DNA from: a virus
Taxonomy: Duplodnaviria > Heunggongvirae > Uroviricota > Caudoviricetes
Strand: one strand, 5' to 3'
DNA length: 32,999 nucleotides
IMG/VR virus record: IMGVR_UViG_2703718851_000003
The stretch's first letter is position 1. Each line of letters opens with the position of its first letter. Under the pieces are notes generated by a model. It had not been told where the DNA came from. It saw only the letters and a list, made by a program, of their open reading frames with translations, and ran no database searches. A program made the translations under genes and the position numbers. Below, in pieces: positions 4,406-31,910 of the stretch.

Positions 4406-4825
4406 TCGTGTTTCCGCTTCGCCGGAGCGCCTTTTCGCGCCATGTGATGAGTTCGGTCAGGCTCATGGGATACAGTTCTGATGGCGGCCAGTGAAATATC
4501 ACTGCCACATCCGCCATCAGGTCATCGACCGAGAAATTTTTCGGGAACGTCACTGCACCGAGTTCGGCGACAAAAAACCGACCACCTTACCGGCCAGCGC
4601 CACAAGGTCAGGCAGTTCCAGCGCGGCGACCTCCTGCTCGGTCAGCATTGGTGCCGTCATGCGCGGCAGCACCTTAATCAGCGCATCGACTTCGGAGTTT
4701 GCGACCGCAGCCAGACTGACACCGCGCAGCGTCCCGGCATTGGGTTTCATCAGCGTGACCTGTTCGATAACCTGCTCACCACGCTTGACCGGATTGTCCA
4801 GGGTAATCACATTTTCTTTGTTCAT
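4398..4825 (-). CDS. E+E': Tail assembly chaperone E+E' (programmed -1 frameshift product, about 142 aa)
   Basis: Minus-strand heptamer TTTTTTG at 4577..4571. The -1 frame stays open for 57 codons (VAELGAVTFPKNFSVDDLMADVAVIFHWPPSELYPMSLTELITWREKALRRSGNTNE) and stops at 4400..4398, overlapping the T start. Same architecture as the P2 E/E' and lambda G/GT recoding. Confidence 0.8.
4550..4825 (-). CDS. E: Tail assembly chaperone E
   Basis: 91-aa ORF upstream of T; contains the slippery run GGT TTT TTG near its 3' end. Confidence 0.9.
   Translation of the reverse strand: MNKENVITLDNPVKRGEQVIEQVTLMKPNAGTLRGVSLAAVANSEVDALIKVLPRMTAPMLTEQEVAALELPDLVALAGKVVGFLSPNSVQ
4571..4577 (-). other. Slippery heptamer T6G for the E to E' -1 ribosomal frameshift
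   Basis: Read directly from the sequence: plus caaaaaa, minus TTTTTTG in the E zero frame as GGT TTT TTG. Confidence 0.75.
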
Positions 4826-4881
4826 GGTTTTCTCACTTCTGAATCGGGGTTAACCGGTCAGCCAGGCTGACCGGATGAAAA

Positions 4882-5400
4882 TCACAGGCCGATATTGCGG
4901 CGGTGTTGCTCCAGCCGGTCGACGCCGTTCACCTTCTCAATCATGTTGATGGTGTCGATTTCGACCAGCTCCTTACCGTCCATCGTCAGCCGGAAATAGG
5001 TGCAGACCACGGAGATTTTCGACTCGGTGTCTTCTCCCTGTTTGCCCTCGCCGGTGTCGATTTCTTTCTGACGTCCACGCATGACCACTTCGACGGCCAC
5101 CGTTTCGCCGGTATCGTCACGCTGGTAAGAGCCTGCAAAACGAATCGGCACAGCATCCACACCGGTTGCGGCGTAAAGCTCCCAGATAACCGAATCCGGG
5201 AAGCCACCGAGCGACCACTCCATTGACAGCGCATCGTCATCAAGGCCGAGGTCTACCGGTGCGCTGCCGTTCATCCCCGCACCGCGATAGTTTTCGAGCT
5301 TACGGGTCAGTTTTGGCAGCGTGACGGACTTTGCAACGCCCTGATAGCTGTAGCCGTTCAGAAAGACGTTCATTAACTTGAGTTTGCGCGGCATTGCCAT
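4882..5400 (-). CDS. FII: Tail tube protein FII
   Basis: 172-aa ORF directly downstream of FI; length and order as P2 gpFII. Confidence 0.9.
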   Translation of the reverse strand: MAMPRKLKLMNVFLNGYSYQGVAKSVTLPKLTRKLENYRGAGMNGSAPVDLGLDDDALSMEWSLGGFPDSVIWELYAATGVDAVPIRFAGSYQRDDTGETVAVEVVMRGRQKEIDTGEGKQGEDTESKISVVCTYFRLTMDGKELVEIDTINMIEKVNGVDRLEQHRRNIGL

Positions 5401-5412
5401 CGGTCAGGCTCC

Positions 5413-6603
5413 TTAATTGCTGTTAACCGAGGTGACCAGATTTGCCAGGTATTTATCGGTAATACGCTGGCGCAGGGTCAGGTTTTCAAGAGGAGGCACC
5501 GGGGTATAGTCATAGTCGATATACAGTTTTCCGGCCTTGAGGGTTTCCGCATCATTGGATTCTTCGCTGAACCAGCAGGTCGCATCCACGATATAGCCGT
5601 TTGTTTTCAGCTCACGGAATTTGGCATTGATGCCGTCAACGATGTCGCGAATCAGCGTTGCAGTGATGGGCTTGTCCACCGCCCACATGTGCGCCTCAGC
5701 CATCGTGTCGGCCAGCACCTGCGCGGTGCGGGTGTAGTTTTCAAAGAGGAACAGCGGGTCATCGGAGCAGGTACGGTTACCCCAGAAGCGGAAACCGTCG
5801 CGGCGAATCAGCGTAGTGACGCCTGACTCGTTAAGCAGGTCAGCATCGGTGCCGGACTCCTGCAAATCCCAGAAGACGGATGCGCTGATGCCGGTAACAC
5901 CGTTCACCCCGACATTGGACAGCGTTTTATGCCAGCCCTGCTCCTGGTCGATTTTAGCGCGCAGACCCAGCGCACGGGCGGTGGCATACGCGGTGGCGGT
6001 GGTACTGGTGACCGTATCCCATGCGAGGAAATCCGGCCAGATGACCATCAGCTCACGCTGGCTGAAATTCTGGCGGTAGGCTTTCACCTCGGAAATGGTT
6101 TTACAGCCCCATGCGCTGATATACCCGAAAGCGCGCAGCTTCTGACAGACTGATGCCAGTGCAACAGCCACCTCTTTGGTGTCCAGTCCCGGCACGCCGA
6201 GAATACGCGGTTTAACACCGGTTACCGACTCTGCCGCCAGCAGGGCTTTCAGTCCGGTGTACTGACCGTTTTCGTCGGTGGTGCCGATGATATTGGAAAC
6301 GGTCTGCGCGAGTTTCGTTTCCTCGTCGTCACCGGTGCCGTCTTCCACACGCACGACAACGGTGACCGGTTTTGACTGGTCGGCGATGGCCTGTAACGAC
6401 GCCGCCAGCGTGCCTTTTTTACCGGCCTTTGCAATTGCGCTCTGCACATTGGTAATCAGCACCGGTTTATTGAGGGGGAAGGTTTCCGCATCCGCATCGC
6501 TGGCCGTGCAGACCATGCCGACAATGGCAGTGGATACGGTGGAAATGACGCGGGTGCCGTCGTTAATCTCCAGCACCTGCACGCCGTGATGATAGTCACT
6601 CAT
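5413..6603 (-). CDS. FI: Contractile tail sheath protein FI
   Basis: 396-aa ORF, first gene of the FI-FII-E-T-U-D block; length as P2 gpFI. Confidence 0.92.
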   Translation of the reverse strand: MSDYHHGVQVLEINDGTRVISTVSTAIVGMVCTASDADAETFPLNKPVLITNVQSAIAKAGKKGTLAASLQAIADQSKPVTVVVRVEDGTGDDEETKLAQTVSNIIGTTDENGQYTGLKALLAAESVTGVKPRILGVPGLDTKEVAVALASVCQKLRAFGYISAWGCKTISEVKAYRQNFSQRELMVIWPDFLAWDTVTSTTATAYATARALGLRAKIDQEQGWHKTLSNVGVNGVTGISASVFWDLQESGTDADLLNESGVTTLIRRDGFRFWGNRTCSDDPLFLFENYTRTAQVLADTMAEAHMWAVDKPITATLIRDIVDGINAKFRELKTNGYIVDATCWFSEESNDAETLKAGKLYIDYDYTPVPPLENLTLRQRITDKYLANLVTSVNSN

Positions 6604-6711
6604 CCGTTTAACTCCGTGGTTAATGGGTGAGTGGTATTTTCAGTTGTGCCGGAGATGTCAGGCTATTTGTCCCGGTTGGCTAATCGACAGCACAACCACC
6701 GGTAAAGAAAA

Positions 6712-6730
6712 GGCGGGCAATTTGCCCGCC
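6712..6730 (-). terminator. GC-rich hairpin followed by a T-run on the minus strand (intrinsic terminator candidate upstream of FI)
   Basis: Near-palindrome ggcgggcaatttgcccgcc; the minus strand continues TTTTCTTT. Lies between the Z/fun-locus gene and the FI start. Confidence 0.55.
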
Positions 6731-6929
6731 TGTCCTGATTTGTACTCACTCATTTTCCGACTGACAATTTACATAGCCCAAACGCTATCAAATCTGACAG
6801 TCTGCTTTGGGTAAACTGATAATGGGCAGAGCTTTGTATGGCTAACTTCAGCATGATACCTTACAGTCAAGCTGACAAAAGGCGGAATGATTATTCGTTG
6901 ATACACATCCTCCTGTAAGGAAACAAAGC

Positions 6930-7700
6930 ATGTATAAAGAACTTATAGAACAGAGACTGAATGAGGCAAAAGCCGCCAGAGCTGCGCTGAGCAAGACTAA
7001 TGGTGTAATTGTCGAAAAAACACATAACCCTGACCGCGGACTGTATCTCGTTAATTATGCCAATTTACTTATGAACAGGCAGATAGACATCTTCGATGAT
7101 GCGCTTCTCCTCCTCGAAAACGAACGATACCAAAGCGCTTGTATTGTTAGCCGAGGAATGATTGAAACTCATGCCTTCTCACGACTCTTAAACAAGAAAG
7201 TAGAGAAAATTTTGACTACCCAAAATGGCCACGCAAGTGTAGATAACGCTATCGAAGTTATATTGAACTTTACGAATAGTTCTCGATTTAAAAAGTCAGA
7301 GCAAGAAAAGATTCAGAAAGGAGTATTTGACCCGAACGACTACATGTTTACTGAGGAGGCTAAATATCGTTTTGAAAACCTACTTGCTGTCAGTATGCAT
7401 GTGATGACTGCTTTACGCGAACTCTATAAAGATGAGATGAAGCAGACTAATCAGATGGAAAGTGATTTTGAACTGACTTATGACATACTTAGCGAATATG
7501 TTCATCCTTCACAAACGAGCATCTACCACTACTACACACCTGAAACCCACTTAGTTCCTACTTCAGTTGGTAATATTCATGCTTATGTGCATGCTCAGCT
7601 ACAATGTGTGAGAGCGCTACTTTTCATATTAGAAGCAAAGAGTCAACATTATTGGTCTACACAGTTAGCAAATGAGATGACCAAACGAGCTAAAGAGTAA
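6930..7700 (+). CDS. AT-rich accessory protein of unknown function at the Z/fun locus (opposite strand to the tail genes)
   Basis: 256-aa ORF with AAGGA Shine-Dalgarno 8 nt before the ATG; visibly AT-rich; occupies the slot between FI and G where P2 carries the non-essential Z/fun gene. Homology to Fun itself cannot be confirmed from memory. Confidence 0.75.
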   Translation: MYKELIEQRLNEAKAARAALSKTNGVIVEKTHNPDRGLYLVNYANLLMNRQIDIFDDALLLLENERYQSACIVSRGMIETHAFSRLLNKKVEKILTTQNGHASVDNAIEVILNFTNSSRFKKSEQEKIQKGVFDPNDYMFTEEAKYRFENLLAVSMHVMTALRELYKDEMKQTNQMESDFELTYDILSEYVHPSQTSIYHYYTPETHLVPTSVGNIHAYVHAQLQCVRALLFILEAKSQHYWSTQLANEMTKRAKE

Positions 7701-24243: not shown

Positions 24244-25194
24244 TTAATTTGCAGTATTAGCCTTTAAAGTAAGCACCTTAGATTTGTAACGTTGCTCAAT
24301 CACTCCCATTGAATGCAAACGACCAAAGAGCTTTTTGGCAATGATTGTTTCTCTCGCATTTTCGGCGTCTTTAATTATTTTCCAATAATCTATTTCCCTA
24401 GCCATCAAAAAATGCTGCTCATTCCTAACTTTTAATGCATTGCCTAATACAATAACTCCAGTTACCAACTTAGGCTTATCTCTGGCATATAGTTTTGTTT
24501 TCGTTGGGTGTATAACATGCCCATGCTTATTAACGATCTTACGAATTACAGCGCAGAACAATCGATTTACGTTACTACCTGAAAAAGTGAGATCATCAAC
24601 ATAAACAGTCATGTTAACTCGTAACTTTTGGCAAAGTTGATATATTTCACCAAACATTCTTGAATTTGCAAAATATGCCAACGGCATACTGATGCGACTA
24701 CCTGTTGGCAATCGGTCATGACAAGTACATATGTGGGACAAAACATCAGCAACATCAGATGACATTTTCATCACCGAAAAGAAAAAAGAAAATATCATCC
24801 CTCTTGTAGTTGATGGAAAAAAAGCTTTAATATCTGTTGTCATCATCTTTTCATTATTAAGATGAGCTTTAGCATTCGTCACATTAGAGCACTTCTTCTT
24901 CCCTGAGTGCAGATATTCTGGCAAAGCAATCCGCGATAACAAACTTGCAATTCGTGTATGTACAAGTTCTAGTTTTTCTAAAGGCTTTTGTATTTTTCGT
25001 GCTTTCCCTTTTTTAGAAAGCTGCTCAAAAACGGAATAGTTTCCTTCATCTTTTCTCAAAGAGTATAAATCATCAAGACTAACACAAAGCAAATTCGCCA
25101 GTTTTCTTTTACTTTTGAGTTTATAAAATGGCGAATCCATTATGTCATAAGATTTATTTTTAGTATTAACTTTAAGCTTTTTCCGTTTTTTCAT
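24244..25194 (-). CDS. Reverse transcriptase, short retron-like type (no C-terminal effector domain)
   Basis: 316-aa ORF with RT motifs in canonical order: NAKAHLNN, DIKAFFPS (motif A), LPTGSRISMPLAYF (motif B), YVDD (motif C), then KLVTGVIV (the VTG triplet typical of retron RTs). Pattern resembles the Ec86 retron RT as I recall it. Confidence 0.85.
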   Translation of the reverse strand: MKKRKKLKVNTKNKSYDIMDSPFYKLKSKRKLANLLCVSLDDLYSLRKDEGNYSVFEQLSKKGKARKIQKPLEKLELVHTRIASLLSRIALPEYLHSGKKKCSNVTNAKAHLNNEKMMTTDIKAFFPSTTRGMIFSFFFSVMKMSSDVADVLSHICTCHDRLPTGSRISMPLAYFANSRMFGEIYQLCQKLRVNMTVYVDDLTFSGSNVNRLFCAVIRKIVNKHGHVIHPTKTKLYARDKPKLVTGVIVLGNALKVRNEQHFLMAREIDYWKIIKDAENARETIIAKKLFGRLHSMGVIEQRYKSKVLTLKANTAN

Positions 25195-25492
25195 TTTTAT
25201 TACTTACCCACTCCAGAACATCCAGAACTTTACCGGCTAAATTTAAACGCAATCGCTTAGACAAACGGCCTTGCGTGCCTAATGATTCCGAAAAGAATAC
25301 TAAAGAGGATACTGGTATGTCGAAATGGGAGGCGTAACGCTCTAAGACTTCAATCGACGGTGACCAAACTCCGCTTTCAAGCGATACTATTTTGTCTTTT
25401 GGAATACCTAAAGATGAAGATAACTCAACTATTGATTCTTTATGGTATTGCCTTATTAAACGAAGGGCTTTATGTAACATAGGCAACTCCAT
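25172..25492 (-). CDS. Xre/Cro-type helix-turn-helix protein, overlapping the RT start (start may be the ATG at 25480, GGAG ribosome-binding site)
   Basis: 106-aa ORF; HTH segment ...ESIVELSSSLGIPKDKIVSLESG...; 23-nt overlap with the RT ORF suggests translational coupling. Confidence 0.75.
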   Translation of the reverse strand: MELPMLHKALRLIRQYHKESIVELSSSLGIPKDKIVSLESGVWSPSIEVLERYASHFDIPVSSLVFFSESLGTQGRLSKRLRLNLAGKVLDVLEWVSNKNEKTEKA

Positions 25493-25516: not shown

Positions 25517-25672
25517 TTACTCATCACCCCCTTCGAAGTAGTCCAGTGCTCGAGTAACTAAATCAAACAGTCTAATACCCCATTTGATTAATTTCCAAGC
25601 GTAACCAGCCCACTTTTTCAGGTTTGACTTGTTCTGCGCCTGCTGTTCGTTGGTTAATTTATCATTCTTCAT
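25517..25672 (-). CDS. 51-aa small protein (MKNDKLTNEQQAQNKSNLKKWAGYAWKLIKWGIRLFDLVTRALDYFEGGDE), first ORF of the RT operon
   Basis: Internal ATG of track ORF 25517..25909 preceded by a strong AAGGAG Shine-Dalgarno at 6-nt spacing; the Shine-Dalgarno is embedded in the 3' arm of a hairpin. Confidence 0.5.
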   Translation of the reverse strand: MKNDKLTNEQQAQNKSNLKKWAGYAWKLIKWGIRLFDLVTRALDYFEGGDE

Positions 25673-25980
25673 GATTTGCTCCTTATGCCCATAGTGTGCA
25701 AACGGTATGTCTGCTCCAACACTATGGTTCGCCCTCATAAGGATGAGATTGAACAGCACTAGCCCCCTGCTCCACGAACCCTTGGTCGCCCAAAGGGTTC
25801 GAATACCCATACGCCATACCTCCTGATCCTGTGACTCCTGTCGCTGGCAGGGGCGTTGCGCGGGGTAAGTGTTAGAAAGCGTTAACTTTCCACGGGTAAA
25901 AATACCCAATTGATGGCGATATATCTCACTAACTAACCAATGTTTGCATCATAACAAGTAAACCGTTGTATTTGCTCCCC
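25673..25980 (-). ncRNA. Candidate structured non-coding RNA / leader of the RT operon (possible retron msr-msd-like or DRT-type template RNA)
   Basis: Series of stem-loops on the minus strand: GGGTA-TTTT-TACCC, GAAAG-TTAACG-CTTTC, an 8-bp stem at 25776..25800, and a composite 7+8-bp hairpin at 25681..25742. 12-bp inverted repeat GGTTTACTTGTT (25964..25953) / AACAAGTCAAACC (25633..25621). No protein-coding potential seen. Confidence 0.35.
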
Positions 25981-26080: not shown

Positions 26081-28375
26081 TTACATGAAAAATGACACTT
26101 CATCTTGAAATCCGAACCACTCATTAGTAACCATATACGTGAATTTTTTCCCGTCATAATTTACGGTTGCCCCACGCGCCAGCGCCTCAATCTCCCATCG
26201 CTGAGGCCTGATACCGTTCTGAGCAAGGTCAACGCGGATACGGGTAATTTGCATTCGTTCCGACCGGGTCAGTCTGGCCGATGGCGCTATTTCATGTGGT
26301 TTTAACGGGCTTCCGTTTCTTTGCTGGCGATTTGGTCTTCTCAGTCCGTGTTTTAATGCACCCCTGAGCGCCCTCACAACCTCCGGGTCATTCCATTCGA
26401 TAACACCGTCATCTACCAGATTAAGCACTGCTGCGGCGTGTTCAGAAGGTGTGGGAGCCGGTAACGAAGCATCACTGCTGGCAGGCTTTCCACAGTTATT
26501 GACAGGACTCCGAGGCGCGGCGATGCCGCTTTTTAAAGTCAAAGGCTCAACGACCGGCACTTTCGGCACAATGCGCCAGTCCGTGGTTCTGGTGATATGA
26601 ATATGACGCGCGCCGAGATGCGGCGCGTAAATGCCGACCACTCTCTCGACTTCTTCCTCGTACTCGTTAACGTCATCCGACGGGCTACGGGCGACCCTGA
26701 CAGTCTGACAATCGCGCGGAACATTTGCCCCACCCTGCGCGCTGATATACAACGCAAAATCACCACTGTCTGCGGCGGCGCGTGCAGCCTCGACGCGCTC
26801 GTCAAACTCATCAGCAATGCTGACGCCGCGAGGCAATTTGCGTAGTTCACGGTAAGCCCCCATTGTCGGCAGGCCAACCGTTTTAAATTGCGGGATGCGC
26901 CACGTTGACGCCCATGCGGTAACAGCCGCCGCTGTGTCTTTCAGCGGCCTGCCGGTATCGTTATCGAGCTGACCATCCAGTGCATAGCCGTCGATGTTTT
27001 TTGAGATGTATTTCGCGATATACCCCGCAGCACCGCCCCGGTTAAGGTGTTTCGCCTGAAAACGGTTTCGCGCGGCTCCTCTTTCGTCGCCATCCTCTTT
27101 GAGCGCGTAGCGACGCATGATTTCGATAATCTGGTTACGCTGGCGCGGATTACAAAAAAGCATCATATGCCAGTGCGGCGTTCCGTCGTGGTGTGGCTCG
27201 ACGACACGCAAACCGTAGACCTGTAAATCATTATCCTTGAATGCCGTGCGCATCAGGCTCCAGATACGGCAGAGATAACGCTGCGCATCCTTTGGATTAA
27301 ATGCCTCATCGTTCCAGCCGTGATTAAGCTGCACGGTTTTACTTTCGCCTTTTCCGACCTGACGTGTCGGGTGATACTTTGACGGCGCGGTCAGCGTGAT
27401 AAACATCCCCACATCACCCTCTGCGGCGGCGTAACGCTCAATACCGGCAATGGTGTTCATCAGCTCCATCCGGCGAATTTCAGGATTAGAAATACTGCCC
27501 ATCACCTTACTGATAAGGTCGATGCGCTCGCCGGTTTCCCTGTTTTCGAGGTCACACGATTTAAGAAATTCCAGATTTGCCTGGCGGCGCGCACGCACAT
27601 CACGAATGGCATGTTTACTGGCATAAGGAGAACGGTCTTTATTGACCTCCCCGACAGCTATCAGTAACGCCTCATGCCAGCGCATACGCTGGCCTTTAAG
27701 CTGATGAGTCCACCACTCATCGTTAAACAGGCGGGCAATGGCAGAATATGCCTGCCTCGTGGTCATCTGTCCTTTACGGTATTTTTTCCAGTAGAGAGGG
27801 GAAATATTGAAAGCACGTGCAGCGCCAGCAACATGACCATACAGGTGAGCCTGCGCCTCATCCGTAAACAGCGATTCTTTTTCGCCATGCGCATCCACCC
27901 AGGCATCGCTGAGTTCCTCATACATCATGAAAAGCTGCGATGAGATACGGGCGGCAAACTTTTTCAGCTCCTTGTCATTCATTCCCGGCAGGCGCGCATA
28001 GTGGTCACGCTCTGCCAGAAACAGCAACGACGCGTCGGTGTTCATTTCATGGCGCTGATTCACACGCTCAATGCGCGGCCATAAACGACGCTGAAAAGTG
28101 GATGTGAGGAAATAAAACCCGTGCACCGGGCTTTTATTGCGCCGGATGTAGTCATAGCGTGAAGTAAACAGCGAGCGCAAAAAGTAAGGCAGGCGGTTAA
28201 TCGTGGATAAAACACCTTGCACCTGACGCATCTCGTCACGTGTAAGGGGTCTTTCGCGCCCGACGGCCTCGCGTGGCGCGTTCCATGCATAAGCACCGGT
28301 AAACGCCTTACCGGTGCCTGCAGCAAATGCTGACGGAGGTACGCAGGTGTATTGCTCCTGGAAAGAATGACTCAT
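26081..28375 (-). CDS. A: Rolling-circle replication initiator A
   Basis: 764-aa ORF (P2 gpA is about 761 aa as I recall); last gene of the early operon; ATGA overlap with the upstream PP-loop gene. Confidence 0.9.
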   Translation of the reverse strand: MSHSFQEQYTCVPPSAFAAGTGKAFTGAYAWNAPREAVGRERPLTRDEMRQVQGVLSTINRLPYFLRSLFTSRYDYIRRNKSPVHGFYFLTSTFQRRLWPRIERVNQRHEMNTDASLLFLAERDHYARLPGMNDKELKKFAARISSQLFMMYEELSDAWVDAHGEKESLFTDEAQAHLYGHVAGAARAFNISPLYWKKYRKGQMTTRQAYSAIARLFNDEWWTHQLKGQRMRWHEALLIAVGEVNKDRSPYASKHAIRDVRARRQANLEFLKSCDLENRETGERIDLISKVMGSISNPEIRRMELMNTIAGIERYAAAEGDVGMFITLTAPSKYHPTRQVGKGESKTVQLNHGWNDEAFNPKDAQRYLCRIWSLMRTAFKDNDLQVYGLRVVEPHHDGTPHWHMMLFCNPRQRNQIIEIMRRYALKEDGDERGAARNRFQAKHLNRGGAAGYIAKYISKNIDGYALDGQLDNDTGRPLKDTAAAVTAWASTWRIPQFKTVGLPTMGAYRELRKLPRGVSIADEFDERVEAARAAADSGDFALYISAQGGANVPRDCQTVRVARSPSDDVNEYEEEVERVVGIYAPHLGARHIHITRTTDWRIVPKVPVVEPLTLKSGIAAPRSPVNNCGKPASSDASLPAPTPSEHAAAVLNLVDDGVIEWNDPEVVRALRGALKHGLRRPNRQQRNGSPLKPHEIAPSARLTRSERMQITRIRVDLAQNGIRPQRWEIEALARGATVNYDGKKFTYMVTNEWFGFQDEVSFFM

Positions 28376-29379
28376 TCACATACACCGGCATAGACACTAC
28401 TGCAAACTGACTTATCATTCACCGAAGCCAGCAAATCAAACTGTGCCCCGCCACGCGTGGTCATCGCCCAGTCACGATAAGACTCAATTCCGTAAGCATC
28501 GACAGTAATAATATCAATGCGGCGTTCCGCACGACGCGGGTCATGAGTTGACGGGAAGAAAGTAGAATTTCCGCGTCTGGAGCATGCGGCGACAAGTCGC
28601 TCCCATTCCGCAACACGCTTAACCTCTTCCGGCCAGCGACTAAAAATTTCAGCTAATTCAGACTTTCTGGCGTGGATGCAGGGCATACAACCGACACGAC
28701 TGCATCCCTGCTGGTATAACGGATTAGGTTTAATTCCATGACGTCTTGCAAATGCAAATACCTCCTCATGCGTCCAGTTCAGAATAGGACGGTATACATG
28801 GAGCCCGGGCGTATTGTCCGCATCCTCTTCCCAGGCAGGCAGACCCGCGCGCGCAGGAGACTCCTGAGCGCGAACCCCCTGCCAGCTAATTACCTCATCA
28901 AACTCATTAAGCGCAGGTAACACGACCTGAGTACGTACTGGCTCATGTTTAAGGTCAAAAGTGCAAAATCTGGCTTTAGTGGAAGGAAATCGCCCTTTCC
29001 ACATGCACAAATCAAGAAATGGGATACCAGTAGGCTTGAGAATTTCCAGCGCACAATTGATGCGCTCTGCCGCTTCCCCCGGAGACATTCCGCACTCTTC
29101 AACCAAAGAAACAGGCCATTTCTCAGCAATAAACTTGCGCTTACCTTCAATCTGTCGGGAGAAGTCAGCTTTAACCCGTTTAACCGGCCCGAGTCGGTTC
29201 TCCAGATAATCGAGATACTCCATTGTCTGCGGATGCTCATGCCCGGTGTCTGCAAAAACCGGCAAAAAATGCACACCGCTTTCAATACCAACAAGCCATT
29301 GAGCAAGGCTATCCTTTCCGCCAGAAACAGAAATAATATTGATAGAGCTTTCAGCTCGGCAGCGGGTATCAACTATCAT
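28372..29379 (-). CDS. PAPS-reductase / PP-loop ATP-pyrophosphatase family protein (DndC-like fold), function in phage unknown
   Basis: 335-aa ORF; N-terminal ISVSGGKDS (SGGxDS PP-loop signature); C-terminal cysteine cluster CSRVGCMPC; translationally coupled to A. Confidence 0.8.
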   Translation of the reverse strand: MIVDTRCRAESSINIISVSGGKDSLAQWLVGIESGVHFLPVFADTGHEHPQTMEYLDYLENRLGPVKRVKADFSRQIEGKRKFIAEKWPVSLVEECGMSPGEAAERINCALEILKPTGIPFLDLCMWKGRFPSTKARFCTFDLKHEPVRTQVVLPALNEFDEVISWQGVRAQESPARAGLPAWEEDADNTPGLHVYRPILNWTHEEVFAFARRHGIKPNPLYQQGCSRVGCMPCIHARKSELAEIFSRWPEEVKRVAEWERLVAACSRRGNSTFFPSTHDPRRAERRIDIITVDAYGIESYRDWAMTTRGGAQFDLLASVNDKSVCSSVYAGVCE

Positions 29380-29657
29380 TTAGATTTCCCCGCACAGAGA
29401 AACGCAGTCAGACACTGCTGACCGAGCTGCTCAACCTGAGAGCTCAGCGCCTCAAAAGAGACAGCGTTACCGCTCAAAATATCGTGATGGATCAGACCGG
29501 AAACGAGCTGGTTTAATTTGGGGTAATAGCCGACAACATCCAGCCACTCTTTACCGGCATTCTTCCCGGTTTCAGCGATCTTTCTCTCCTGCAAAATGAA
29601 CTGAAAACGGTCATTTGTGACGACATAACGCTCGCCAATCTCGATACGAATGCTCAT
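29376..29657 (-). CDS. Hypothetical early-operon protein (93 aa)
   Basis: ATG start; ATGA overlaps with both neighbours. Confidence 0.6.
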   Translation of the reverse strand: MSIRIEIGERYVVTNDRFQFILQERKIAETGKNAGKEWLDVVGYYPKLNQLVSGLIHHDILSGNAVSFEALSSQVEQLGQQCLTAFLCAGKSK

Positions 29658-29880: not shown

Positions 29881-30180
29881 TCAGCTCCTTTTATCGTTAA
29901 GTTTCCTGGATACATCAGCGCAATAACTGGCAAGTTCTGTCGTTAATTTTGTCAGTTCATCCACGGAGGAAATTTGCTTGTGGAATACAGCGCGTTTAAC
30001 AAGTAAATTGACCACATCAGACAGGAGGTTTAATTCATTCTGATAAATCGCGATAACAGATTCAGTTATGTCGCGTTTTTCTTTATCAAGACAAAGTTGA
30101 ATAAGAGACAAATCGCCATTTTTCATAACGGCGATTTTTAAGGCGTTATTCAGTAATACAACTGAATGAGAACAGGACAT
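29881..30180 (-). CDS. Hypothetical early-operon protein (99 aa from ATG; track ORF begins with an upstream TTG)
   Basis: ATG at 30180 overlaps the stop of the upstream 74-aa ORF. Confidence 0.55.
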   Translation of the reverse strand: MSCSHSVVLLNNALKIAVMKNGDLSLIQLCLDKEKRDITESVIAIYQNELNLLSDVVNLLVKRAVFHKQISSVDELTKLTTELASYCADVSRKLNDKRS

Positions 30181-30404
30181 CAAAGTACCTCCCCGCGAGA
30201 CAATCCGATATTGTGAAATTTTTCCGACTCCTGACTGAGCAGCTCGACTATCTCCACGCGGGATAACTCCGCCTTTGTGATATGGCGAATCATGGCGTCA
30301 AGATGAGAAGAAAAGCGCGTCGCAGCGTCGGCCTGTGCTTCGGTTCTGGCCTGTTGCAGCAGTAATGCGTATTTACCGCACTGATTTTCAGAAACTGTAT
30401 GCAT
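30180..30404 (-). CDS. Hypothetical early-operon protein (74 aa)
   Basis: ATG start; downstream of B in the same operon. Confidence 0.55.
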
Positions 30405-31517: not shown

Positions 31518-31610
31518 AAGATTTGCGATTCACCAACTGGAGCCATCTAGAGCCTTTTTGAGTGAATCACAAATTGCCAAGTAGCAATATAATTGGAGAT
31601 TAGCAAAATT
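31518..31610. promoter_or_regulatory. Divergent immunity-switch region (expected Pe/Pc promoters and operators) between cox and C
   Basis: 93-nt intergenic spacer; perfect TATAAT at 31588..31593 on the plus strand about 18 nt before the C start; 7-bp inverted repeat GATTCAC (31527..31533) / GTGAATC (31563..31569). Confidence 0.5.
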
Positions 31611-31910
31611 ATGTCAAGTGAACAAAGTGAGAAACTAAAGCTCATCCGTGAATCCGAACGCCTTAAAACCAAGGAACTTGCTGAATTAATTGGAATTAAT
31701 TACTACACATATCATGGATATGAATCAGGAAAATCAAAAATGCCTATGGAAGCAGGTATGAAGCTGTTTAAGCATCCACGCTTTCGCAAGTATCGTGACT
31801 GGTTCATGTTTGATGAAACAGATCCAGCAGCTGGACAAATAGCCCCGGCTCTCGCACACATTGGGCAAGACTCAACAACCTTGCACCACTCAGACCAGAA
31901 GACTGGCTGA
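31611..31910 (+). CDS. C: Immunity repressor C
   Basis: 99 aa from the ATG at 31611 (track ORF starts at an upstream TTG); C-terminus ...AGQIAPALAHIGQ...KTG resembles P2 C as I recall; length as P2 C. Confidence 0.85.
   Translation: MSSEQSEKLKLIRESERLKTKELAELIGINYYTYHGYESGKSKMPMEAGMKLFKHPRFRKYRDWFMFDETDPAAGQIAPALAHIGQDSTTLHHSDQKTG

Follow-up and report, generated by a model that had tools for sequence, protein, structure and literature searches.

The stretch of viral DNA analysed here (IMG/VR virus record IMGVR_UViG_2703718851_000003; 32,999 nucleotides, referred to throughout as the window) is the genome of a P2-type (Peduovirus) phage, and its early lytic operon consists of cox, B, orf80, orf81, orf82, orf83, a reading frame of 335 amino acids (aa), and the replication initiator gene A, arranged in that order. 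The subject of this analysis is the 335-aa frame, which encodes a PP-loop protein of the phosphoadenosine phosphosulfate (PAPS) reductase superfamily. Its features and those of its neighbours are collected in Table 1, which includes a candidate early promoter, at a position corresponding to that of Pe in the P2 record, that would drive transcription of cox, B, orf80 to orf83, the PAPS-type gene and A.

An earlier note on this DNA described a 335-aa open reading frame (ORF) with an SGGKDS motif near its N-terminus, and both were confirmed in the ORF listing, where the motif occupies residues 19-24. The assignment of the product to the PAPS-reductase superfamily was likewise borne out by a match to Pfam PF01507 (PAPS_reduct) over residues 15-236 that lies well above the gathering threshold (123.3 bits versus 22.5; E=1.4e-35), and was accompanied by a match to phrog_424 (E=2e-84). 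Among 1.84 billion cluster representatives, 3056 relatives were found at E<=1e-3 and 351 at E<=1e-30, and comparisons between homologues revealed strong purifying selection, with a nonsynonymous divergence (pN) of 0.09-0.33 against a saturated synonymous divergence (pS) of 0.63-0.86, and dN/dS values of 0.04-0.08 where these could be computed. Because of the PAPS_reduct score, the number of relatives and the difference between pN and pS, the frame is not a chance one. The 'Cys cluster near the C-terminus' of the earlier note requires amendment: the cysteines are present, but they fall into two groups, with C226, C231 and C234 at roughly 70% of the length of the protein, and C326 and C334 within its last ten residues.

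Table 1. Features of the locus and its surroundings, in positions of the window
Feature	Positions	Strand	Basis
335-aa ORF, 186-Orf84-type PP-loop / PAPS-reductase-superfamily protein	28372..29379 (stop included)	-	ORF listing; ATG start
SGGKDS PP-loop motif, aa 19-24, ATP pyrophosphatase signature	29308..29325	-	read from translation
Cys139 in RFC-T-x-x-L-K144, proposed Fe-S ligand	28963..28965	-	conservation and manual alignment extension
Cys231-x-x-Cys234 in RVGCMPC, proposed Fe-S ligands	28678..28689	-	aligned with APS-reductase Fe-S CxxC
Tail C326-SSVYAGV-C334-E335, proposed mobile catalytic / persulfide-carrying Cys pair	28375..28404	-	conservation
ATGA overlap, 335-aa ORF stop / gene A start	28372..28375	-	sequence; + strand reads tcat
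ATGA overlap, orf83-like gene stop / 335-aa ORF start	29376..29379	-	sequence
orf83-like gene (DUF5405), upstream neighbour, left insertion boundary	29376..29657	-	Pfam DUF5405 E=1.3e-13
Replication initiator gene A, P2-type, 764 aa; downstream neighbour, right insertion boundary	26081..28375	-	Pfam Phage_GPA E=7e-124
Candidate Pe-like early promoter TTGACA-17-AATTAT, upstream of cox	31589..31617	-	consensus scan only
HTH_VI (retron)	25172-25492	-	PADLOC E=7.7e-31
RT_VI (retron)	24244-25194	-	PADLOC E=4e-105; Pfam RVT_1

An AlphaFold2 model of the protein, generated from an alignment of 59 sequences, displayed a predicted local distance difference test (pLDDT) value of 94.3 and a predicted template-modelling score of 0.91, with the pLDDT dropping to 73 and then to 60 in the last 20 residues. 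Within that model the SGGKDS motif directly follows a strand (E12-17), in keeping with the SGGxDS/T signature of PP-loop ATP pyrophosphatases, which comes after the first beta-strand. When conservation was counted over 150 representatives of 50%-identity clusters, the six positions of that motif (S, G, G, K, D and S) were found to be conserved in essentially all non-gapped members, and the PP-loop, a DTGxE motif, K144 and a WQGVRxxES motif proved to be invariant, or nearly so, across the family. The same is true of several cysteines, including C139 (149/150), C231 (143/150) and C234 (137/150), as well as C326 and C334 in the tail (132 and 133, respectively, of 135 representatives that are not gapped there); C226 is not conserved, and the exact C-terminal 'CE' is found in 108 of the 150.

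In a profile search against PDB sequences, the C231/C234 CxxC aligned with the iron-sulfur (Fe-S) CxxC of the adenosine phosphosulfate (APS) reductases from Pseudomonas aeruginosa (2goy; sIGCEPCT) and Mycobacterium tuberculosis (7lhr; sIGCAPCT). That alignment starts just downstream of C139, and its manual extension would place C139 opposite what we take to be the first cysteine of the CC pair of the P. aeruginosa enzyme (PaAPR); residue 140 is Thr or Ser in the family, so that no such pair exists. Residues K144 and R170 fall at positions that presumably correspond to the APS-binding Lys144 and Arg171 of PaAPR. The predicted layout, as read from these alignments, is therefore one of an intact, ATP-cleaving PP-loop, a probable three-cysteine Fe-S site, and a pair of cysteines on a C-terminal tail that is of lower model confidence and is possibly flexible.

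In a fold search of the PDB, CysH and the APS reductases ranked closer than any chain resembling DndC or SspD. A search of the BFVD matched other proteins labelled 'PAPS reductase', in part only (TMq <=0.49), and the C-terminal 132 residues alone found no match in the PDB. Larger members of the family (P0248, P0126, P0256 and others) contain no informative additional Pfam domain, except for one weak match to a methyltransferase. The family profile also matched, weakly, the 270-aa PDB chain 21fy_C ('PptA'; E=6.8e-5) at positions 185-249, in the region of an NPLY..RVGCxPC motif; a literature search found no paper describing that PptA, which may be a relative with a solved structure.

Similarity to sulfonucleotide reductases raises the possibility that the gene encodes a genuine assimilatory PAPS or APS reductase (CysH-like), and would thus be an auxiliary metabolic gene (AMG) that provides sulfite for cysteine supply during infection. 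This is the usual reading in databases and virome papers: GenBank and PHROG labels include 'phosphoadenosine phosphosulfate reductase' and 'cysH', CysH and APS reductases head the PDB matches in sequence as well as in fold, and the CxxC, the cysteine-bearing tail and the presumed correspondence of K144 and R170 all recall APS reductase. A fitness role in sulfate assimilation has also been proposed in older literature (PMC2920897).

Several lines of evidence argue against that assignment. The earlier note had itself named kinship to a sulfate-assimilation enzyme as an outcome that would speak against its proposal, and in comparisons using hidden Markov models (HMMs) every curated CysH and APS-reductase model scored far below its NCBIfam cut-off: the CysH models NF002537, TIGR00434 and TIGR02057 reached 66.8, 45.6 and 41.7 bits against required values of 154, 165.1 and 254.2, and the thioredoxin-dependent APS reductase model TIGR02055 reached 55.2 of 235.3 bits (the CxxC being present and the CC pair absent). 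The catalytic ECGLH motif of CysH is absent from the sequence, which ends in ...CSSVYAGVCE; only about 180 of the 335 residues superpose on the solved reductases; and the canonical SGGKDS stands where the aligned reductases possess a degenerate loop (SSSFGIQA in 6vpu, SFSGAED in 2goy). The gene resides, moreover, among genes for replication and DNA modification rather than sulfur metabolism, and E. coli hosts already possess cysH. Because of the failed thresholds, the canonical PP-loop, the missing ECGLH and the genomic context, the CysH label is the least likely of the serious rivals, and is quite improbable; a reading of the protein as a true CysH was rejected.

The description of the protein as 'DndC-like' in the earlier note is appropriate for the superfamily and inappropriate for the DndC family: the match to TIGR03183 is limited to residues 132-212 and scores 22.6 bits where 290.4 are required, and none of the genes that accompany Dnd or Ssp enzymes was seen nearby. 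In particular, neither a cysteine desulfurase nor DndD/SspC or DndE/SspB is present in the early operon of the window, and none of these partners occurs among the 25 commonest Pfam families listed for same-strand neighbours within three genes at 55 other viral loci (described below). PADLOC models, which lack curated cut-offs, gave partial matches to SspD (E=8.6e-22, 76 bits), BrxP (1.1e-15) and DndC (6.5e-7), with the best stretch of the SspD match pairing only residues 126-263 with positions 72-202 of a 277-position profile. Membership in the IbrA/DUF3440-type and PRK06850 groups was also rejected (NF005316, 23 versus 536 bits).

The gene itself is already known and annotated, and its discovery at this locus is not new. 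Its DNA is 99.8% identical to that of Yersinia phage P37 and to OU784746, a record named 'Peduovirus P2', and its product is 99.7% identical to P37 protein QIW90028, which is annotated 'PAPS reductase family'. A tblastn search of phage records identified Orf84 of coliphage 186 (CP84; GenBank U32222.1, 25743-26747), with 82.3% aa identity over residues 2-335. Phage 186 shares the order Orf83-Orf84-A, as well as the ATGA overlap onto A, and by identity, synteny and overlap the gene is the orthologue of 186 orf84. The GenBank record of 186 describes orf84 as 'unknown function; not essential', and adds that synthesis of the A protein appears to require orf84 to be translated to its end.

Whether P2 carries an equivalent, a question left open by the earlier note, was answered by comparison of the early regions: P2 (NC_001895) lacks the gene that 186 possesses. 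In canonical P2 and in L-413C, Orf83 directly overlaps A, and alignment of the window with L-413C demonstrated that homology ends near the 3' end of orf83 and resumes where A begins. The region was matched by 75 records of P2-type phages, of which four (representing two distinct phages) contain the gene and the remaining 71 lack it, with the match being split around it. Its absence from P2, L-413C and most P2-type phages therefore identifies it as an accessory insertion between orf83 and A. Among complete E. coli genomes it is carried by 67 of 5426, in 14 of them at >=99% identity and in the other 53 at 60-80%. The window and phage 186 do not differ in the final codons of the gene (...YAGVCE) or in the ATGA junction, and the 5' end of gene A in the window aligns with that of L-413C and other P2-type phages, not with 186-type A; the rest of the early operon is also P2-type. 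The DNA is thus 186-orf84-like up to the ATGA and P2-type immediately after it, which places a mosaic joint exactly at the stop/start junction. The gene appears, from these alignments, to have moved between Peduovirus and Eganvirus backbones precisely at that overlap.

The same junction underlies the translational coupling of the gene to A that had been claimed for it. The overlap is present as described, with the TGA stop of the ORF overlapping the ATG of the 764-aa gene A (28372-28375), and the coupling has experimental backing in the orthologue, through the GenBank note for 186 orf84 on translation of A; the ATGA overlap with the orf83-like gene upstream is additional to those recognised before. 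Ribosomes that finish the ORF hand translation on to A by way of stop/start overlaps on the operon mRNA. A TGA stop is used in 35 of 39 enterobacterial-type family loci, versus 45% of the other ORFs at the same loci (Fisher p=3.6e-8), and at 55 of 63 loci with an RTGA sequence (R being A or G) an ORF 40 or more codons long begins with the RTG, whatever the downstream gene. An invariant C-terminal Glu codon followed by TGA creates the (A/G)TGA, and coupling, as judged from these sequence patterns, seems to be a property of the family. A role 'in concert with replication', as had been suggested, has its sole support in the translational coupling, and the 186 gene is recorded as non-essential.

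The conservation of RTGA overlaps with the downstream gene across the family, and the record for 186 of a non-essential gene that must be translated to its end for A to be made, would fit a frame that acts mainly as a translational leader for A, with an enzymatic activity that is dispensable or decaying; a related suggestion is that of a gene for lysogenic conversion or superinfection exclusion. Such explanations are highly improbable: (i) dN/dS does not exceed 0.08, and unrelated phages in which the gene is followed by something other than A retain the catalytic motifs unchanged even where overall identity is 40-50%; (ii) P2 couples A directly from orf83, without the 335-aa gene; and (iii) the gene is part of a repressor-controlled early lytic operon, rather than of the retron-bearing hotspot for lysogenic conversion that lies next to A. 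A reading of the gene as a 'prophage defence gene' was likewise rejected.

Around the start of A and in the wider region, local RNA folding was not significant (z=-1.58). A perfect 10-bp hairpin, GCACCGGTAA-loop-TTACCGGTGC, lies at 28293-28317, which is 58-82 nt into gene A, and A genes of the L-413C/P2 type share it. For 186, a terminator named tM1 is annotated at a similar point of the A gene and is noted there as expected when A is not translated; its sequence differs from that of the hairpin in the window.

The distribution of the family was examined by a scan of IMG/VR with a degenerate pattern, which confirmed at least 301 relatives among the 600 matched stretches listed. Eighty loci were kept, their ORFs were clustered (blastp, phmmer), and same-strand neighbours within three genes were searched against Pfam. 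At 25 of the 80 loci, which are P2-like, gpA lies downstream (directly in 17, and with one or two ORFs between in eight). The other 55 loci display varied neighbours and no fixed partner gene, with no neighbour cluster present in more than four of them (the largest being a deoxynucleoside monophosphate (dNMP) phosphatase). The commonest neighbour families are DNA methyltransferases (13 matches), and Mom, RecT, ERF, Rad52, DnaB, SSB, lambda P and RusA also occur, so that the neighbourhood is an early module for replication, recombination and modification.

Copies that are 85-87% identical to the window protein reside in non-P2, lambdoid, nin-like loci (L003, ~6001-7005; L005, ~4571-5575; L010, ~6001-6990), where they adjoin a dNMP phosphatase (phrog_318) or lie near a NinB homologue, without gpA; such identity in lambdoid contexts shows recent exchange between unrelated types of temperate phage. 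A dNMP phosphatase is located upstream in four lambdoid-type loci, and a dATP/dGTP diphosphohydrolase-like neighbour is found in one locus. Full-length homologues at 42-46% identity are present in phages of Burkholderia (phiE125, phi644-2), Pseudomonas, Serratia, Stenotrophomonas, Acidovorax and Agrobacterium. The family is strongly conserved; besides P2-like and lambdoid phages, many others carry it, and no partner gene accompanies it consistently.

Other features of the window surround this operon. The P2 'tin/old' hotspot for lysogenic conversion, between the portal gene Q and A, carries a type VI retron on the minus strand (24244-25492), next to whose genes lies a 130-aa ORF (25517-25909). 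A scan of the retron region with Rfam returned no non-coding RNA family, and its msr/msd was not located. The hotspot of phage P37 (L001, 9293-13008) contains instead an ASCH protein, a C5-methyltransferase and a large hypothetical protein, and that of an E. coli C11 prophage (L084, 12396-15445) contains a C5-methyltransferase and a BbrUII/HgiDII restriction enzyme (a type II restriction-modification system). The early operons of P37 and C11 are almost identical to that of the window, the PAPS-type gene included, and the hotspot cargo differs; there is no linkage between that cargo and the PAPS-type gene. Within the operon, the orf81-like gene (29881-30183, minus strand; E=3.5e-30) matches DUF5405, as does the orf83-like gene, and the two are therefore paralogues; a PHROGs tag that they bear, 'replication initiation protein', is without evident basis.

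The only member of the wider clade with a phenotype is known through a sister family, that of lambda NinC. Profile-profile comparison of the Orf84 and NinC families yielded a probability of 99.4% (E=5.6e-22, 212 columns), and in direct tblastn searches at permissive E values lambda NinC was matched at E=7 (~24% identity) and a protein of Vibrio phage 44E38.1 at E=4. A four-way alignment revealed common PP-loop, FC-T..LK, W.G.R..E and GC..C-I motifs, and the cysteine equivalent to C139 is invariant in the NinC family. The NinC family is, by these comparisons, a sister family of Orf84. Membership of the window protein in the NinC family itself was rejected, given the tblastn value of 7 and a differing loop (SGGRTS) and GSCSESCE motif.

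The protein of Vibrio phage 44E38.1, p0018, bears the label 'Dam methyltransferase with PAPS reductase domain'; it shares 59% identity with NinC and includes a fused Dam domain. When p0018 and p0019 were moved together into a sensitive phage, that phage grew to high titre on a Dnd host, and the pair was termed an 'anti-Dnd system' by its discoverers (Piel et al., bioRxiv 10.1101/2021.05.05.442762). The product of p0019 belongs to DUF6475 (L085, 44E38.1, 1911-2498), and a DUF6475 gene also lies upstream of an Orf84-family gene at one IMG/VR locus (L075, 3240-3908), which is the only locus among those clustered where this neighbour recurs. This result has been cited in later work, in which PAPS reductases have been reported, in addition, in anti-defence operons regulated by Aca proteins (PMC13551039).

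Considered together, the motifs of the window protein suggest that it transfers sulfur at the expense of ATP, and not that it assimilates sulfate, and the best reading that we infer for it is that of a stand-alone Fe-S sulfurtransferase that would act on phage nucleic acid. In a functional model that we favour only tentatively, and that falls somewhat short of being probable, the protein would be an ATP-dependent enzyme with an Fe-S site, a nucleic acid of the phage (most likely DNA) as its substrate, and a role in counter-defence. The enzyme would bind ATP and adenylate an oxygen of the substrate, with release of pyrophosphate. Sulfur would be mobilised by the host cysteine desulfurase IscS, and would be held on the open iron of the three-cysteine [4Fe-4S] cluster, as a persulfide on the tail cysteines, or both. 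It would then displace AMP, in chemistry like that of DndC, SspD and TtuA. The likeliest substrate would be newly made phage DNA, either at its backbone or at a base, and the resulting mark would protect the phage from host systems, Dnd and Ssp among them, whose targets are DNA molecules that lack a modification. The modification of DNA or nucleotides, or an anti-restriction role, as the earlier note had proposed for this protein, is unproven but plausible.

A more far-reaching version of that model extends to the Orf84/NinC clade as a whole, which might comprise single-protein nucleic-acid sulfurtransferases of phage that install phosphorothioate or thio-base marks on replicating phage DNA with sulfur from host IscS only, without DndD/E or SspB/C, and whose conserved stop/start coupling to whichever early gene follows (the cis-acting nickase A in this phage) might time and dose the activity at the origin or fork. 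We regard this version as speculative and rather doubtful.

A number of observations weigh against the sulfurtransferase model. Alignment is the only basis on which an Fe-S cluster, and a role for the cysteines of the tail, are proposed. DNA phosphorothioation, where known, requires DndD/E or SspB/C for site recognition and nicking, and those partners are absent here. We know of no report of modification in the DNA of 186 or of P2-type phages, and a literature search turned up no paper that characterises proteins of the Orf84 or NinC type biochemically. The enrichment of methyltransferases among the neighbours is modest, and may simply reflect membership in an early module. The anti-Dnd evidence comes from the sister family, and from a Dam fusion together with the second gene p0019 rather than from the PAPS-type domain alone. 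Finally, in Vibrio phage 367.14, the relevant protein of which is 32% identical to that of the window, presence of the gene did not correlate with Dnd in the host (PMC10945359).

The absence of a DNA-recognition partner also speaks for a second possibility, in which the same chemistry is directed at RNA (such as tRNA, in the manner of TtuA, TtcA and ThiI) or at a free nucleotide, and serves to tune translation or to evade defences directed at tRNA or nucleotides. Three cysteines with an open iron site correspond to the arrangement in TtuA and NcsA, and the dNMP phosphatase and dATP/dGTP diphosphohydrolase-like neighbours described above hint at the nucleotide pool. A Pfam scan of the protein, however, identified neither THUMP nor PUA nor any comparable domain for RNA binding, the genetics of the sister family point to a DNA-directed defence (Dnd), and the neighbours are mainly genes of DNA metabolism. 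A target of this kind is conceivable but unlikely.

Sulfur might also not be involved at all. The protein could instead be a PP-loop ligase of the kind represented by QueC, QatC, Cap9 and the asparagine-synthetase type, which join an adenylated substrate to an amine or protein, or could consume a signalling nucleotide, with an anti-defence function in either case. It has been proposed that CysH-like proteins of type IV-B CRISPR systems act purely as ATP alpha-hydrolases (PMC8175902), and the Aca-regulated operons mentioned earlier are compatible with anti-defence by such a route. This account leaves unexplained the five conserved cysteines, which are laid out as in Fe-S enzymes of sulfur transfer and reduction; the CRISPR-associated protein (CasCysH) is described as lacking the catalytic cysteine (PMC8175902), one of which is kept in the window family; and the closest folds are those of sulfonucleotide reductases rather than QueC. 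It is, in our estimation, decidedly unlikely, although not to the degree of the CysH label.

The interest of these results lies in the biochemistry of the Orf84/NinC clade, and not in the presence at this locus of what is an ordinary, annotated accessory gene. The family is represented in two textbook phages (by orf84 in 186 and, through its sister family, by ninC in lambda) and in at least hundreds of viral contigs, and in surveys of viromes is routinely counted as a 'cysH sulfur-metabolism AMG', a label against which the evidence of motifs, thresholds and context argues. The analysis offers a testable model, comprising adenylation at a PP-loop, a three-cysteine Fe-S site and a C-terminal pair of cysteines, and profile comparison ties the family to the single phage protein for which an anti-Dnd phenotype is on record. 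Should the model prove correct, many AMG annotations would require correction, and a simple, one-gene form of counter-defence by DNA marking would be defined; if the single-protein version holds as well, lambda NinC and 186 Orf84, which have gone unexplained for decades, would represent a new and widespread self-marking counter-defence against immunity of the Dnd and Ssp type.

Comparison with established systems places the window protein among several better known relatives. The APS reductases possess an Fe-S CxxC in the same place as the CxxC of the window protein, their nucleophilic cysteine on a flexible C-terminal tail has a putative counterpart in it, and K144 and R170, which presumably match the APS-binding Lys and Arg of PaAPR, are conserved. 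It differs from APS and PAPS reductases in general (CysH; 2goy, 7lhr, 6vpu, 1sur) in its ATP-type PP-loop, some 150 extra residues, the apparent retention of only one cysteine of the CC pair, and the lack of ECGLH. The CysH-like protein of type IV-B CRISPR systems differs by its published description (PMC8175902), given that the window family keeps conserved tail cysteines, and no csf genes are present in the window.

DndC, SspD and BrxP belong to the same Pfam superfamily and share the canonical PP-loop. By its published description (PMC10853773), DndC combines a PP-loop with a cysteine dyad and a 4Fe-4S centre to which three cysteines are ligands, which is the same layout as that proposed here for the 335-aa protein; DndC and BrxP are unlike it in being much larger, and neither DndA/D/E nor SspA/B/C is encoded near the window gene. 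The closest comparison is with Orf84 of phage 186, which departs from the window in the 186-type A and early operon that surround it. Lambda NinC (290 aa, encoded in the nin region) differs in its SGGRTS loop, in lacking a helical insert of about 40 residues (aa ~85-115), and in its tail, where a CxxxCE motif (invariant SCSESCE) is followed by 15-20 more residues, as against the Cx7CE at the very end of the window protein; the two are alike in having a pair of cysteines followed by Glu near the C-terminus, in being non-essential, and in belonging to an early module of replication and recombination.

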